A DNA stretch of 37,572 bases, from sequence record OR670062.1, one strand, 5' to 3'. This document shows positions 16,831 to 22,573 of the stretch, one piece after another (within the stretch, counting starts at the first letter, position 1; each line of letters begins with the position of its first letter). A program made the position numbers and the translations under genes. The notes under the pieces were generated by a model that searched no databases, was not told the origin of the DNA, and saw only the letters and a list, made by a program, of their open reading frames with translations. This DNA is from Escherichia phage SKA5.

Positions 16831-17250
16831 TTACTCATCATCAATAGATGATACGCAATATTTATTTTTAAATTTAAGGTTCTTTGGCGTAACTTCATCA
16901 GAGATATCAAAACCGTCCAGAATTCTATTGAATGTAGCTTCTGGCATATCATCATGAACAGAAATCTCACCCGATCGCTGCTTTCTAACCATGTTATCCA
17001 CTCGCCAAATTATAGCTTCAGCGTAAACAACATAACTTGGATGCTTGATAAAGCGATGATCACCAGAATTCAAGACGCAAGACGGATCGTGGGGGACACC
17101 ATCCTTGATACTAGAAATATTAACAACTAAAACACAATAACAATCGTTAACGGGGTAATAAACAGGATCATTACAAATCACATGAAGATGATTGCATGGC
17201 CCAGTTGGGGCAAGCACAGTTCCTTTCCTGTATGGCTGATAATCCGTCAT
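16831..17250 (-). CDS. hypothetical protein; candidate toxin/effector partner of the Panacea-domain protein
   Basis: 139 aa, Cys/His-containing, AT-rich codon usage. Its start overlaps the stop of the upstream Panacea-like gene (ATGA). No family recognised. Confidence 0.5.
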   Translation of the reverse strand: MTDYQPYRKGTVLAPTGPCNHLHVICNDPVYYPVNDCYCVLVVNISSIKDGVPHDPSCVLNSGDHRFIKHPSYVVYAEAIIWRVDNMVRKQRSGEISVHDDMPEATFNRILDGFDISDEVTPKNLKFKNKYCVSSIDDE

Positions 17251-17819
17251 GATAATTGCAAAGAAAATTCCTTAAGTTTCTGAGATTCTTCCATTTTGCC
17301 AATTATGCGATTAGCCTCATCCTCGCTTTTACCCTCACTGATCAGCATTTCTTTCAGGTCTATAGGCTTACGAGAATTGCCAGGATCGTGCCACTCTGGA
17401 CAAACGCTTTCTAAATGCGTCATATTTGCGAGATCAAATCGGTTCATATGCCCATACCGAGAATAGATTTCATCTAAAATCCGGATATCTGCACGACTCA
17501 ATTCATCAAAGACCTCGTCTGCATCCATTTCCCTCGGATCTGAACGCAACGATACATTATGCCCGTTCGTCTCTATCAAGTTGTACCAGTAGTCACCAAT
17601 GCCTTCAGCCTTACCGCGAATCAAGTTCAGCGTATTCGACATGACTGGTCCAAATTTCATAGAGTAAAGGCTATCTTCGCCGATCATCCTGCCATGCTTC
17701 AAAATCGACTGGCGGTTAGACAGATAGAGCAACTTCATCAATTTCAGATATGCCATGCGCCCACCTCGCTTAAGAAGTAGGTATGCAGCCATTTGAGCTA
17801 CTTTTTCTTCGCAAAACAT
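17247..17819 (-). CDS. Panacea (DUF4065, GepA/SocA-like) domain protein; candidate antitoxin
   Basis: 190 aa with motifs I associate with DUF4065 (AAYLL, KLMKLLYLSNRQS, FGPV, ILDEIYSRYG...LANMTHLESVCPEW). First gene of an AT-rich minus-strand unit. Confidence 0.6.
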   Translation of the reverse strand: MFCEEKVAQMAAYLLLKRGGRMAYLKLMKLLYLSNRQSILKHGRMIGEDSLYSMKFGPVMSNTLNLIRGKAEGIGDYWYNLIETNGHNVSLRSDPREMDADEVFDELSRADIRILDEIYSRYGHMNRFDLANMTHLESVCPEWHDPGNSRKPIDLKEMLISEGKSEDEANRIIGKMEESQKLKEFSLQLS

Positions 17820-18011: not shown

Positions 18012-18246
18012 AGGTTCCCAATAGGATCCCACAAAGTGTATAACTAGTTGTTTTTCAAAAACGGTACATCCTATCGAGCATAGGAGCAATGCTAAACCGA
18101 GAATTCCAGTAAACACCAGTTTTTTCAGGCATCACGCTGGTTTGATTAATTTTTTGTGTTTCATGATTATCGTGCATTTTTGAACATTTCAGGCTATTTT
18201 TCTCGCATTAGGTTCCCGCACAGGTTCCCACGTTTTATGGGAACCC
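18012..18246. repeat. clustered (A/G)GGTTCCC(A/G) repeats; candidate integrase arm-type sites / attP region
   Basis: Copies at 18012-18020, 18023-18031 (one mismatch), 18210-18218 and 18222-18230, with an inverted copy at 18238-18246, in the AT-rich non-coding stretch just upstream of the integrase gene. Confidence 0.35.
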
Positions 18247-18265
18247 GAAATAACGAGGTCGTGTA

Positions 18266-19363
18266 ATGGCGTACTATAACATAGAGAAACGACTAAAATC
18301 CGATGGCACACCACGCTATCGCTGTAATGTGATTATCAAAGAAAAAGGTGTTATCACTTACAGGGAAAGCAAAACATTCCCTAAACATGCTCATGCCAAA
18401 ACATGGGGCACACAGAAAGTGATGGAATTAGATCTATATGGCATTCCATCATCAAATGCAGTTGACGGACTTACAGTCCGTGACTTACTACACAAATATT
18501 TAAATGACCCAAATGCCGGAGGTAAAGCAGGCCGTACTAAAAGATATGTGCTGGAACTGCTTATGGATAGTGACATCTCCGCGATCAAACTATCTGAACT
18601 GACAGAAAATGACGTAATTGAACATTGCAGGCTAAGAAACAACGCTGGCGCAGGTCCAGCAACAGTCAGCCACGATGTTAGTTATCTTGGCAGTGTTCTG
18701 GATGCGGCCAAACCTGTATACGGAATTAATTACACATCAAACCCGGCGAAAAGTGCTCGTCCATATCTACTTAAACTTGGTTTGATTGGTAAATCAAACC
18801 GTCGTAATCGTAGACCAGCATCTGATGAACTGGACATGCTCATTGAAGGCCTTCAACAACGATCTACTCATAAATGCTCAAAAATTCCGTTCGTTGATAT
18901 CCTCAAATTTTCTGTGTGGTCCTGTATGCGAATCGGAGAAGTATGCCGGTTACGATGGGAAGATCTCGACCAGGAACAAAAATCTATACTCGTAAGAGAC
19001 AGGAAAGATCCACGCAAAAAGGAAGGCAACCACATGAAAGTAGCCTTGCTTGGGGAAGCCTGGGATATCGTCCAACGACAGCCCAAAAAATCGGAATTCA
19101 TTTTTCCATATAACAGCACTTCTATTACTGCGGGATTTCAGAGGGTAAGAAGCAAATTAGGTATTAAGGATCTGCGATACCATGATTTGCGTAGAGAAGG
19201 GGCAAGTCGCTTATTTGAGGCTGGTTTTAGTATTGAGGAAGTAGCCCAGGTTACAGGGCATCGTTCATTAAACGTGCTATGGCAGGTATATACCGAACTG
19301 TATCCGAAATCTTTACATAATCGTTTTGAAGAGCTCCAAAGGAGCAGAAATAAGACCCCTTGA
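18266..19363 (+). CDS. tyrosine-type site-specific integrase
   Basis: 365 aa with C-terminal catalytic-domain motifs (HDLRREGASRLF, GHRSLNVLWQVY). Confidence 0.9.
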   Translation: MAYYNIEKRLKSDGTPRYRCNVIIKEKGVITYRESKTFPKHAHAKTWGTQKVMELDLYGIPSSNAVDGLTVRDLLHKYLNDPNAGGKAGRTKRYVLELLMDSDISAIKLSELTENDVIEHCRLRNNAGAGPATVSHDVSYLGSVLDAAKPVYGINYTSNPAKSARPYLLKLGLIGKSNRRNRRPASDELDMLIEGLQQRSTHKCSKIPFVDILKFSVWSCMRIGEVCRLRWEDLDQEQKSILVRDRKDPRKKEGNHMKVALLGEAWDIVQRQPKKSEFIFPYNSTSITAGFQRVRSKLGIKDLRYHDLRREGASRLFEAGFSIEEVAQVTGHRSLNVLWQVYTELYPKSLHNRFEELQRSRNKTP

Positions 19364-19409
19364 CACTGTTTATCCATACAGTTAAAAATAATACTGTATA
19401 CAAACACAG
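19360..19409 (+). promoter_or_regulatory. SOS-regulated promoter region with two LexA boxes
   Basis: TTGACA at 19360-19365, then two CTGT-N8-ACAG boxes (CTGTTTATCCATACAG at 19366-19381; CTGTATACAAACACAG at 19394-19409), directly upstream of the dinI-like ATG. Confidence 0.6.
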
Positions 19410-19424
19410 TATAGAGGGACTTTT

Positions 19425-19673
19425 ATGCGTATTGAAATCTGCATAGCCAAAGAAAAAATGACTAAAATGCCAACCGGTGCTGTGGATGCGTTAAAGGAAG
19501 AATTAACCCGACGCATCAGTAAACGTTATGACGATGTAGAGGTGATCGTAAAAGCCACCAGCAACGATGGCCTTTCTGTTACACGCACCGCAGATAAGGA
19601 TTCTGCAAAAACTTTTGTTCAGGAGACTCTGAAAGATACCTGGGAATCTGCTGACGAGTGGTTTGTTCACTAA
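19425..19673 (+). CDS. DinI-family protein (SOS-inducible RecA modulator homolog)
   Basis: 82 aa; [10 protein letters not shown]-terminus and [16 protein letters not shown]-terminus closely resemble DinI. Confidence 0.85.
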
Positions 19674-19816
19674 TTAACACGTAAAATCGGTAACGGCTGG
19701 AAATCATTCAATAATCGCACTATCGAAAGTTCGCCAGCCAGCCGCAGCACGTTCTTGCATACGACGTGGCTGCGGCTTCCAACATTAGACAAATAACTCT
19801 TTAAATTGCTTTTAAA

Positions 19817-20380
19817 TTATTTCGTTTGAATGCCAGTAACAGGAAATCGTTTATATAGGGTTGATAGCCCAACGTTATAGATACGTGCAACATAACGCCG
19901 TGATTTCCCTGCCGCTATGAGCGCTCCCATCTGTTGCCACTGCTCGTCGCTAAACTTCGGTCTACGCCCACCAATCCGGCCTTTGGATCTGGCAATAGCC
20001 AAACCAGCTAAAGTTCGCTCGCTATTCAAATCAGATTCATACTGCGCAGCAGAAAGAATATTACGGAAATTATAGCGACCACTTGCTGTTTTCAGGTCTA
20101 CGCCATCTGTAATACTCCGAAAATTAACACCTTTTTCGTGCAGATTTTGAAACATCAATAGCGCATGCAGCACATTTCTCCCTATCCGATCTAACTTCCA
20201 GACAATCAACTCATCTCCACTTTTCATCACCGTAATTAATTCCTTTAACACAGGGCGATTAGCTGTTCTGCCACTGGCATATTCTTCATAAATTCGCTCA
20301 CAGCCAGCTGACTCAAGTGCAAGACGTTGCAACTCTGTATCCTGATGATTTGTTGATACACGAACATACCCGTAAATCAT
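19817..20380 (-). CDS. serine DNA invertase (Pin/Gin/Hin family)
   Basis: 187 aa; N-terminal resolvase catalytic domain (GYVRVSTNHQ with the Ser nucleophile) and a C-terminal HTH. Adjacent to the invertible tail-fibre segment. Confidence 0.9.
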   Translation of the reverse strand: MIYGYVRVSTNHQDTELQRLALESAGCERIYEEYASGRTANRPVLKELITVMKSGDELIVWKLDRIGRNVLHALLMFQNLHEKGVNFRSITDGVDLKTASGRYNFRNILSAAQYESDLNSERTLAGLAIARSKGRIGGRRPKFSDEQWQQMGALIAAGKSRRYVARIYNVGLSTLYKRFPVTGIQTK

Positions 20381-20439: not shown

Positions 20440-20465
20440 ATATTTGAAAGGTTGGTTTGGGAGAA
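20440..20465. repeat. inversion crossover site (left), hix/gix-like
   Basis: ATATTTGAAAGGTTGGTTTGGGAGAA; inverted copy of the core TTCTCCCAAACCAA found at 22271-22296. Confidence 0.6.
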
Positions 20466-20918
20466 GGTTCGGCATTACCCGTTGGTGTGCCTGTCCCGTG
20501 GCCTTCCGCCACTCCGCCAACAGGCTGGCTAAAATGCAATGGTGCGGCTTTTTCTGCTGAAGAATACCCGGAACTGGCAAAGGTTTATCCGACAAATAAA
20601 TTGCCTGATTTACGCGGTGAATTTATTCGTGGCTGGGATGACGGACGTGGAGTGGATGCCGGGCGACAATTATTATCTTCACAGGGGGATGCAATAAGAA
20701 ATATTGAGGGATTCGCAGATGGCGGGATCGGTATGTCTTTTGATGCAATCAGAGGGGCTTTTTACGATGCAGGAACACGATCAGCGAGAATGCCGAATAA
20801 CACAACTACTATAGACAAAACCGATGACCTTGGATTCGACGCCTCTCGTGTCGTGCCAACAGCTAATGAAAACCGTCCACGTAACATCGCCTTTAATTAT
20901 ATTGTGAGGGCTGCATAA
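20457..20918 (+). CDS. alternative tail-fibre C-terminal segment (silent orientation)
   Basis: Open frame starts exactly at the crossover site (LGEGSALPVG) with a stop codon just upstream. It would fuse to the constant fibre N-terminus after inversion. Confidence 0.6.
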   Translation: MGEGSALPVGVPVPWPSATPPTGWLKCNGAAFSAEEYPELAKVYPTNKLPDLRGEFIRGWDDGRGVDAGRQLLSSQGDAIRNIEGFADGGIGMSFDAIRGAFYDAGTRSARMPNNTTTIDKTDDLGFDASRVVPTANENRPRNIAFNYIVRAA

Positions 20919-21511
20919 TGAAACCTGTTTTTGATGAAAATGGGCTGGCTACAGTGCCGGGTGATATGCGTTGTTTTTATTATGATGCAGTAACGTCTGA
21001 ATATACGGGCTGGTCTGATGAATATATTAATACTGGCGTAAGTATGCCCGCCTGTTCCACTGGTATTGACCCGGGCGAATACATTCCGGGGAAAGTGGCA
21101 GTATTTACGGGTAAGGGATGGAGCCATGAAGAAGACCACCGCAATGAGACTGTTTACTCAATCGAAAATGGCGCAGCTGTTACAGTGGATTATATCGGTG
21201 CCATCAAAGACGGTTATGTCACGCTTTCACCGTTAACGCCATACGATAAATGGGATGGTGAGAAATGGGTGACAGATACTGAGGCACAGCATAGTGCCGC
21301 ACTAGACGCGGCAGAAGCACAGCGCCAGTCGCTGATTGATGCTGCAATGGCTTCCATCAGTCTGATTCAACTGAAATTACAGGCCGGGCGGAAGCTGACG
21401 CAGGCAGAAACAACCCGACTTAACGCCGTGCTGGATTATATTGACGCGGTGACGGTAACAGATACCAGCACTGCGCCGGATGTCATCTGGCCTGAACTGC
21501 CGGAGGCGTAG
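20918..21511 (+). CDS. tail fibre assembly protein (partner of the alternative fibre)
   Basis: 197 aa; conserved Tfa C-terminus (LDYIDAVTVTDTSTAPDVIWPELP). Confidence 0.75.
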   Translation: MKPVFDENGLATVPGDMRCFYYDAVTSEYTGWSDEYINTGVSMPACSTGIDPGEYIPGKVAVFTGKGWSHEEDHRNETVYSIENGAAVTVDYIGAIKDGYVTLSPLTPYDKWDGEKWVTDTEAQHSAALDAAEAQRQSLIDAAMASISLIQLKLQAGRKLTQAETTRLNAVLDYIDAVTVTDTSTAPDVIWPELPEA

Positions 21512-21923
21512 GCCATTCAATATCTGGCGCACCGGAAGTATCGACCAGTTCCAGTGTGTCCAGATAATCCAGCCACAAATTATATTGCGCCAGTTCCTCA
21601 CCTTTCAGGCGACCAATCGCCGCTTTACCAGGCCATTGCTTACTGTTTATGTATTCGTTGACCTGATTAATCAATTGCTGCTTTTCCAGTTCGGCTGCGG
21701 CAATTTGTTCCTCATGAGTTGGCGGTGGAATATCAATCCATGCAGGCATTCCGTCGATGACACCTCTGTATTTTCCTTCTGGTGCTTCCTTCATAAATTC
21801 GGCGGCAACAGTGTCGTCAATTTCGATTCCATCATCGGGCCATTCGCCGGATTCCTGATAAGCGATTTTAAGCTCCACAGGGAAAAACGCATTTTTATCG
21901 GCACTGAAAATATATTTCTGCAT
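21483..21923 (-). CDS. tail fibre assembly protein
   Basis: 146 aa with the same Tfa C-terminal motif (LDYLDTLELVDTSGAPDIEWPTPP). Convergent with the other Tfa gene and overlapping it by 29 nt. Confidence 0.75.
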   Translation of the reverse strand: MQKYIFSADKNAFFPVELKIAYQESGEWPDDGIEIDDTVAAEFMKEAPEGKYRGVIDGMPAWIDIPPPTHEEQIAAAELEKQQLINQVNEYINSKQWPGKAAIGRLKGEELAQYNLWLDYLDTLELVDTSGAPDIEWPTPPAVQAR

Positions 21924-21925
21924 TT

Positions 21926-22573
21926 CTACCGTCCTATCGAAATATAACTGAATCTGTATTGCTGTGAGATATCACTGGTTGCCACACGCCACGCTGAATT
22001 ACTGATATGTTCAAAATTTACAGACAAAACCTGCGGGGCAGGATGCGACGGATCTGACTGAACGGCATCAGACATAACACTGACTGAAACCATCGGCTGA
22101 TTAGGGAATGGTATAGGGAAGTGTCCACTGATAAAGCGGGTCGTGTTTCCTGAAAAAGTGCCAAACTGAACAATATATCCACCTGGTAGCCTGAACCATC
22201 CCGAACCAGAAGCGAATGCTCCCATATCCGGTATCTGATTATCTCCTGTGCCCACATCCCTTTTCGCCGCTTCTCCCAAACCAAGGTTTTCGAGAGCCGT
22301 TTGCACAGTGCCATCCGATTTGATATCGCCAAACGGATTCTTGCGGCTTAACAGCAGCGCACGAAGTGCGGTAAGCAGCTGGTCGTGCCGCGCCTTCTCG
22401 AGACTGGCACCGGATGCCTCTACAACGCTGCAAAGCTCCTCCTGCAACATGTCAAAGTAGTCATCATCCAGATCGGTGGCAGGCGTGCCAGTCTGGGGGT
22501 TACCACGGGTAAAACCGTTCTTACCCGCGCCGAACTTATCCTTCTGCGCGGTTTTCGTGTCTATACGATGCAT
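21926..22573 (-). CDS. tail fibre protein (constant N-terminus plus currently expressed variable C-terminus)
   Basis: 215 aa, last gene of the tail operon. The inversion crossover site lies inside the gene at 22271-22296. Confidence 0.7.
22271..22296. repeat. inversion crossover site (right), hix/gix-like
   Basis: TTCTCCCAAACCAAGGTTTTCGAGAG inside the tail-fibre gene; resembles the hixL pattern. Confidence 0.6.

Follow-up and report, generated by a model that had tools for sequence, protein, structure and literature searches.

This analysis concerns a short region of Escherichia phage SKA5 (OR670062.1), studied in a window of 37,572 bp that comprises the whole stretch of DNA analysed and to which all coordinates refer. 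Immediately downstream of a tyrosine integrase gene, int, lies a gene for a small DinI-like protein, and the promoter predicted for this gene carries two LexA boxes in tandem. A first-pass annotation had noticed two CTGT-N8-ACAG sites upstream of the dinI-like gene, beginning at the int stop codon and next to a TTGACA -35 element; it had predicted that the gene is SOS-inducible and that its product could tune autocleavage of the phage repressor CI, and with it prophage induction. Both 16-mers lie where they had been placed, and the TGA stop codon of int (19361-19363) falls within the TTGACA hexamer, with box 1 immediately 3' of it. We consider it highly probable that the locus comprises a LexA-repressed sigma-70 promoter driving a phage-borne paralogue of dinI, and that the promoter, its two operators, the gene, a 3' untranslated region (3'UTR) and a terminator hairpin make up a self-contained cassette inserted after int.

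The predicted dinI promoter and its two LexA boxes

The promoter scan called TTGACA-18-AAAAAT, with 10/12 matches, and found no terminator between the int stop codon and box 1. Box 1 fills the spacer between the -35 and -10 elements, while box 2 begins 3 nt past the -10 element and lies over the predicted transcription start at approximately 19395-19398. The 20-mer of box 2 is separated from the ATG by 13 nt, and the distances of the two boxes from the ATG are 13 and 41 nt. Both sites are CTG-N10-CAG palindromes with an AT-rich centre, and both overlap the core promoter or start site as predicted. Box 1 has five mismatches, and box 2 three, to the 20-mer consensus TACTGTATATATATACAGTA.

These are the only two matches to CTGT-N8-ACAG on either strand of the window, where 0.40 would be expected; two or more matches anywhere in the window occurred in 6 of 100 shuffles. 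With an approximate 20-bp LexA matrix, built from E. coli boxes, box 1 scored 20.6 bits and box 2 22.5 bits, both inside the range of the boxes used to train it. The next best site in the window reached 9.0 bits, and no other LexA site, for example on an antirepressor gene or cI, was found in the phage. When the window was simulated 500 times with a first-order Markov model, sites of at least 15 bits averaged 0.056 per simulation, and any site of at least 20 bits was seen in only 0.2% of simulations. Therefore, two such sites 28 bp apart are far beyond what chance would produce, and a chance origin was rejected by the shuffles and the Markov simulations. The heterology indices, approximate because they come from the same set of boxes, were about 5.2 for box 1 and about 2.9 for box 2, in the range of strong SOS boxes.

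The protein encoded downstream matches the Pfam DinI family (PF06183) over profile positions 1-63 of 63, with an E value of 1.1e-19 and 70.9 bits against a cut-off of 24.2, and its alignment with E. coli DinI (PDB 1GHH/7YWA; E 3.7e-13) spans the full length. It scored 73 bits with the NCBIfam DinI equivalog model NF007893, below the cut-off of 111 that marks the chromosomal orthologue, and we therefore regard it as a DinI-like paralogue and not as host dinI. In E. coli DinI, L13, L21, W71, W77 and F78 hold the L2 loop of RecA, and E24, E69 and D76 form an acidic patch (Gao et al. 2023, PMC9926225). In the 1GHH/7YWA alignment, the phage counterparts of these residues are M15, L23, W73, W79 and F80, and E26, D71 and E78; all eight are identical (five) or conservatively replaced (three).

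In a species-level scan, in which each species was represented by one genome, 80 DinI-family loci from across the Enterobacterales were recovered. One or more LexA boxes were present within 150 nt of the start in 73 of them, and LexA control is therefore a trait of the family. Most of these loci (59) have just one box, whose usual start is at -39. Two boxes of at least 12 bits were found at 14 loci, 12 of which have the tandem layout; these 12 are the closest relatives of the phage gene, at 56-99% protein identity, and come from Escherichia, Shigella, Erwinia, Mixta, Pantoea and a few oddly labelled assemblies. The 14 two-box loci include those of Erwinia, Mixta and Pantoea, at 56-72% protein identity. 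In all the tandem loci, those of Escherichia, Erwinia and Mixta among them, the first CTG directly follows TTGACA; the exception is the Pantoea locus, which has TTGAA. On this sampling the tandem layout is specific to one clade. Cassettes with dinI of enterobacterial type also turned up in assemblies labelled Chryseobacterium, Saccharibacteria, Wohlfahrtiimonas and Vagococcus, which are most likely contaminated or contain mis-binned contigs and do not represent true hosts.

Within that clade the promoter has been kept with some precision. Both boxes were present in 49/49 IMG/VR loci with enough upstream sequence, and 31 distinct tandem promoter variants (-35, box, -10, box) were collected in total from coliphages, Shiga-toxin (Stx) phages and prophages of Erwinia, Mixta and Pantoea. 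In the 21 of these 31 that share the 12-nt spacing of the window, substitutions affect the box centres, the outer flanks and the spacer between the boxes, but none of the CTGT and ACAG ends; AAAAAT of the -10 element is invariant, and the T before it varies in about 5%. The -35 and -10 elements are thus conserved as well as the boxes. The CTG-N10-CAG of box 2 is intact in 18/18 compared homologues, and decay of box 1 was seen in one relative, BP-4795, where CAG has become CAA. Among phage genomes, int and dinI are 98-99% identical in the lambdoid phage mEp460, whose record annotates the promoter and no LexA site. In phages with other genes upstream (cdtI, many Stx1 and Stx2 phages, BP-4795, P-EibC and PhiR12), homology starts at query positions 58-61, which is TTGACA, and promoters as little as 72% identical in nucleotide sequence have kept the -35, the -10 and both boxes next to unrelated upstream DNA. 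A DinI-like variant with a different N-terminus (MPHRYPAA...) occurs in Stx2_499 and similar Stx2a phages, with no LexA box in the 130 nt upstream; its region also carries an IS629 insertion, and the variant looks like a cassette that has lost its 5' part.

Taken together, site quality, position on the promoter, conservation at orthologous promoters and the behaviour of tested homologues strongly support the prediction that the phage dinI gene is repressed by LexA and inducible by SOS.

Extent of the cassette and its phage setting

Homology to other phage backbones begins at TTGACA and stops after a GC-rich hairpin downstream of dinI, as seen in phage cdtI, in Stx1 and Stx2 phages and at the ends of O157 prophages. 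Close relatives have approximately 105 nt of 3'UTR in common, ending at this hairpin, and in BP-4795, P-EibC and PhiR12_1 only the core of promoter and gene is common, with unrelated 3' ends. The position of the cassette varies: it follows int in the window and in mEp460, it follows orf31 beside the cdt genes in phage cdtI, and in Stx and O157 prophages it lies within about 200-270 bp of an attachment-site duplication or the end of ssrA. The same unit is thus found in unrelated contexts with sharp boundaries, and we therefore regard it as a self-contained, mobile, LexA-controlled moron. As for the parts of such a unit in the window, the promoter is a predicted one, and the hairpin is present without a T tract and was not called as a terminator by the scan, which returned no intrinsic terminator after dinI. 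A T5CT5 tract follows this hairpin in mEp460 and in several further copies, and compensatory changes in its stem are seen among 45 variants; in these relatives it is predicted to behave as an intrinsic terminator. The T tract has been lost where the cassette joins the invertase module (19740-19816), and transcripts may therefore read on, antisense to the convergent invertase gene. The first-pass annotation was borne out on regulation; it missed the mobile cassette from promoter to terminator, the restriction of the tandem layout to one clade, and the published precedent discussed below.

A near-complete copy of the cassette, defined as at least 80% of the 426-bp unit, was present in 1408 of the 5426 complete E. 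coli genomes sampled. There are up to nine matching places per genome; the two O157:H7-type genomes among those listed have eight. An unannotated site between ecpE and ykgJ, in K-12 MG1655 and in about 5100 of the 5426 genomes (about 94%), also matches the cassette's 3' end. This site is a decayed, frameshifted dinI-like pseudogene that has no promoter. Between K-12 and the window, the 3'UTR of this fossil is 92% identical and the remnant of its coding sequence 79%.

The phage itself is a dusA-integrating temperate myovirus, and the window is a circular permutation of its genome. E. coli strain 19-5 has the same order of int, dinI, invertase, tail fibre, baseplate, head and terminase genes, adjoining dusA. 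The window holds a 5' fragment of dusA with the other prophage end joined on its left; since it joins both prophage ends, it represents the excised circular form of the phage. The phage carries a replacement 5' end for host dusA, and homology to the dusA/int junction of strain 19-5 runs from 18074. On the other side of the cassette, a serine invertase of the Pin/Gin type stands beside an invertible segment in which tail-fibre tip and assembly genes form two sets on opposite strands; the variable segment at this position is a different one in strain 19-5. Near the attachment region is a two-gene unit encoding a protein like SocA/Panacea-domain antitoxins and a second protein of 139 amino acids with no Pfam match, which is possibly a toxin-antitoxin or defence moron.

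Table 1. Features of the dinI cassette and of its surroundings in the window
Feature	Position	Strand	Details
CI repressor of the phage	12142-12795	+	Helix-turn-helix and S24 peptidase (Pfam); lambda CI 3BDN, E 7e-25
Two-gene SocA/Panacea unit	16831-17819	-	
Second gene of the SocA/Panacea unit	16831-17250	-	
SocA/Panacea-domain antitoxin-like protein	17247-17819	-	
dusA 5' fragment	18074-18177		
Replacement 5' end of host dusA	18074-18265		
int, tyrosine integrase of the dusA-targeting type	18266-19363	+	Open reading frame (ORF) list; Pfam Phage_integrase, E 1.6e-20; same gene beside dusA in E. coli 19-5
-35 hexamer TTGACA	19360-19365	+	Promoter scan; also the 5' boundary of the mobile cassette
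LexA box 1	19364-19383	none	CACTGTTTATCCATACAGTT; 16-mer core CTGTTTATCCATACAG at 19366-19381
-10 element TAAAAAT	19383-19389	+	TAAAAA with a 17-nt or AAAAAT with an 18-nt spacer
LexA box 2	19392-19411	none	TACTGTATACAAACACAGTA; 16-mer core CTGTATACAAACACAG at 19394-19409
Shine-Dalgarno sequence GAGGG	19414-19418	+	6 nt 5' of the ATG; from the sequence
dinI-like gene	19425-19673	+	82 amino acids; predicted binder of the RecA-filament groove; Pfam DinI
Match to the ecpE-ykgJ site	19616-19767		
Conserved 3'UTR segment	19674-19739	+	Stem GGCTGG/CCAGCC (19695-19739), core AATCATTCAATA(A/C)TCGCACTATCG; fold
GC-rich 14-bp hairpin	19740-19777	+	Terminator hairpin, without its T tract here, and 3' boundary of the cassette; fold
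Invertase and invertible tail-fibre segment	19817-22573		
Pin/Gin-type serine invertase	19817-20380	-	
Tail-fibre tip and assembly genes, first set	20457-21511	+	
Tail-fibre tip and assembly genes, second set	21483-22573	-	

Proposed mechanism and its alternatives

In an undamaged lysogen, we suggest that a LexA dimer on box 1, in the spacer of the promoter, would block binding of RNA polymerase and that a second dimer on box 2 would block initiation. Expression would need both boxes to be vacant, giving a very low basal level and a sharp, probably late, SOS threshold. Upon DNA damage, RecA* would cleave LexA, the promoter would open, and the DinI-like protein would accumulate and bind to the RecA filament's groove. 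LexA binding, the transcription start, the timing of derepression and the effect on RecA*, CI cleavage and induction are steps that we infer.

The repressor of the phage fits this scheme. CI aligns over its full length with lambda CI and has the VQAG cleavage site (Ala-Gly) as well as the GDSMT serine and KK lysine of the Ser/Lys dyad. By this alignment it is a cleavable repressor of the lambda type and the likely RecA*-dependent induction switch, and induction should therefore run through RecA-stimulated autocleavage of CI. DinI and lambda CI bind the same groove of RecA (PMC9926225). That the DinI-like protein could tune CI autocleavage and induction, as the first-pass annotation had proposed, is plausible, being structurally reasonable and in keeping with the anatomy of the phage. 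Any such effect could be one of damping or of prolonging, because DinI both stabilizes filaments and can block co-protease substrates.

A more ambitious form of this idea would make the tandem-operator cassette a portable governor of RecA filaments that two LexA dimers would keep fully off until LexA depletion is deep or sustained. Its product would then compete with cleavable CI repressors in the RecA groove or prolong their access to it; its copies, with up to nine matching places in a genome, could jointly set the threshold and timing of induction of CI-type prophages, including Stx phages; and the 3'UTR core, which even the widespread fossil copy has conserved, could add an RNA output. We offer this as a speculation that is unlikely to hold.

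Several points weigh against our interpretation. The spacing of the boxes varies, with 16-mer starts 24-29 bp apart among homologues and not at whole helical turns. The boxes have kept their places with respect to the promoter elements but not their helical phasing; a fixed phasing, which would have implied cooperativity, was rejected because of this range of spacings, and cooperative LexA binding is therefore not implied. The layout suggests that the two boxes occlude the promoter independently and need not act as a cooperative pair. The LexA matrix and the heterology values both depend on an approximate set of boxes, and the terminator in the window is without its T tract. Literature searches on mEp460, DinI-like, Stx with dinI, and moron found no paper describing the cassette or the tandem boxes. 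Lastly, non-polar deletions of the Gifsy-1 and Gifsy-3 dinI homologues, the only published deletions of this kind, caused no significant change in induction (PMC3121763), and the influence of the protein on the phage switch may therefore be small. However, the Gifsy phages use uncleavable repressors and antirepressors, and their deletions are therefore no test of the present case.

Among other explanations, the conserved 3'UTR raises the prospect that the main SOS-induced product is wholly or partly an RNA, as with Klebsiella DinR, which is processed from dinI mRNA (PMC10907235). The core, GGCTGG-AAATCATTCAATA(A/C)TCGCACTATCG-...-CCAGCC, lies in a 66-nt segment that is highly conserved in most of the 45 variants while its flanks and the terminator stem vary, and the fossil between ecpE and ykgJ has kept its 3'UTR better than its coding sequence. 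Against this, the fossil contrast comes from few sites (12/58 mismatches in the coding sequence and 5/66 in the 3'UTR) and is statistically weak, and the more diverged cassettes of PhiR12_1, P-EibC and BP-4795 have unrelated 3' ends. A search of Rfam over 19200-20000 gave no credible match, the best being CssrB at 22 bits against a gathering score of 76. A small RNA acting on ftsZ in the manner of DinR was considered and rejected: the predicted duplex between the 3'UTR and the K-12 ftsZ leader, at -21.4 kcal/mol, was no better than the shuffled mean of -22.4 kcal/mol. An RNA as the main product therefore seems unlikely to us. It is very unlikely, in our judgement, that the LexA-controlled antirepressor modules of Gifsy or 186 (dinI-gfoA/gftA, tum) are represented here by a remnant or variant, the cassette, whose role is to trigger induction via an antirepressor, even though Tum of phage 186 has a DinI-like half (PMC3121763). 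No plus-strand ORF of at least 20 amino acids, and thus no hidden antirepressor or other small ORF of that size, lies in the stretch from the dinI stop (19673) to the convergent invertase gene; in all close relatives the cassette ends at the hairpin, about 100 nt past the stop; and a CI with an intact S24 autocleavage domain needs no antirepressor. The locus thus has neither a co-transcribed nor a fused antirepressor, the 82 residues being DinI only, and its repressor has the features of autocleavage.

The two remaining explanations concern the boxes themselves. With no terminator ahead of box 1 and a -35 element that overlaps the int stop codon, the boxes could act mainly as a LexA roadblock or insulator that stops read-through from int into downstream DNA in the lysogen, rather than as the control of a dedicated promoter. 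However, this promoter with its boxes is also found where int does not lie upstream (in cdtI it follows orf31; in Stx phages, BP-4795 and P-EibC it lies beside attachment sites), and the boxes therefore travel with dinI and not with int; the equal conservation of the -35 and -10 also speaks against a roadblock, which we consider highly improbable. It is scarcely credible that the two sites are chance palindromes or decayed relics no longer bound by LexA. Apart from the decay of box 1 in BP-4795, this rests on the general caution that a match to a consensus is not proof of binding, and it is opposed by the shuffle, score and Markov statistics and by conservation across genera with invariant half-sites.

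We therefore favour a LexA-repressed promoter that drives a mobile dinI paralogue. If confirmed, this would be a clear case from E. coli to set beside the other phage genes whose control relies on host LexA. The regulatory logic is expected and will not surprise specialists; the value of the finding lies in better annotation and in a testable handle. A phage protein in the RecA groove used by LexA, UmuD and CI could shift SOS dynamics, mutagenesis and the threshold for induction of prophages and toxins. The cassette also lies at the ends of many Shiga-toxin phages, and such a possible shift in threshold bears on antibiotic-triggered release of Stx.

Comparison with known systems

Chromosomal dinI is a classic SOS gene. 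The phage gene resembles the chromosomal dinI of E. coli, Salmonella and Klebsiella in family and fold, in its RecA-contact residues and in its predicted repression by LexA through a box over the start site; it differs in being a paralogue in a mobile cassette with tandem boxes, whereas the chromosomal genes mostly have a single box starting at -39. Tandem LexA operators with tight repression are known from lexA, recN and the colicin genes, which share with the phage promoter more than one LexA box on a single promoter. Unlike the fixed two-turn or overlapping pairs, the arrangement here is one box in the spacer and one over +1, 28 bp from centre to centre in the window and 24-29 bp in homologues. 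Morons in the sense of Hendrix are autonomous units of promoter, gene and terminator inserted between phage genes. The cassette is like them in its sharp homology boundaries, in the unrelated phage backbones around it and in having a predicted promoter and a terminator hairpin of its own, and unlike them in that its expression would be tied to SOS, not constitutive in the lysogen, and in the loss of the terminator T tract in the window.

Evidence for LexA control of related genes comes from several studies. LexA ChIP (chromatin immunoprecipitation) is positive at Klebsiella dinI (PMC10907235), and the dinI-like gene c0943 of CFT073 falls together with sulA, dinI, umuD and recN in an array study (PMC2817434), a pattern that gives indirect support for co-regulation. 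No prophage dinI entries were found in the supplements of an enterohaemorrhagic E. coli ciprofloxacin transcriptome. The dinI homologues of Gifsy-1, -2 and -3 are controlled by LexA, with induction upon DNA damage (Lemire et al. 2011, PMC3121763), and a genome-wide screen of boxes and transcriptomes confirmed this, with one box 19 nt from the ATG of Gifsy dinI and an induction that ranged from 4.6- to 23-fold (Merida-Floriano et al. 2021, PMC8072944).

Gifsy is a close parallel as a prophage with a DinI paralogue and a LexA box on its promoter, with induction by DNA damage in the Gifsy case. It differs in having one box at 19 nt where the window has two, at 13 and 41 nt; in that its dinI is followed by a co-transcribed antirepressor and irsA, whereas here nothing follows; in repressors that are not cleaved, in contrast to the cleavable lambda-type CI; and in the place of dinI after the replication genes and not after int. 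Coliphage 186 also has a LexA-controlled promoter, p95, whose product, Tum, has a DinI-like domain; Tum is a 146-amino-acid fusion with antirepressor activity, essential for SOS induction of 186 (PMC3121763), whereas the protein in the window is a stand-alone DinI of 82 amino acids. LexA control of a prophage dinI is already known from Salmonella Gifsy, and only the pairing of operators in tandem and the missing antirepressor partner are distinctive here: the cassette differs from the known cases in combining two strong operators and no antirepressor, in a phage with a cleavable CI, within an autonomous mobile unit.

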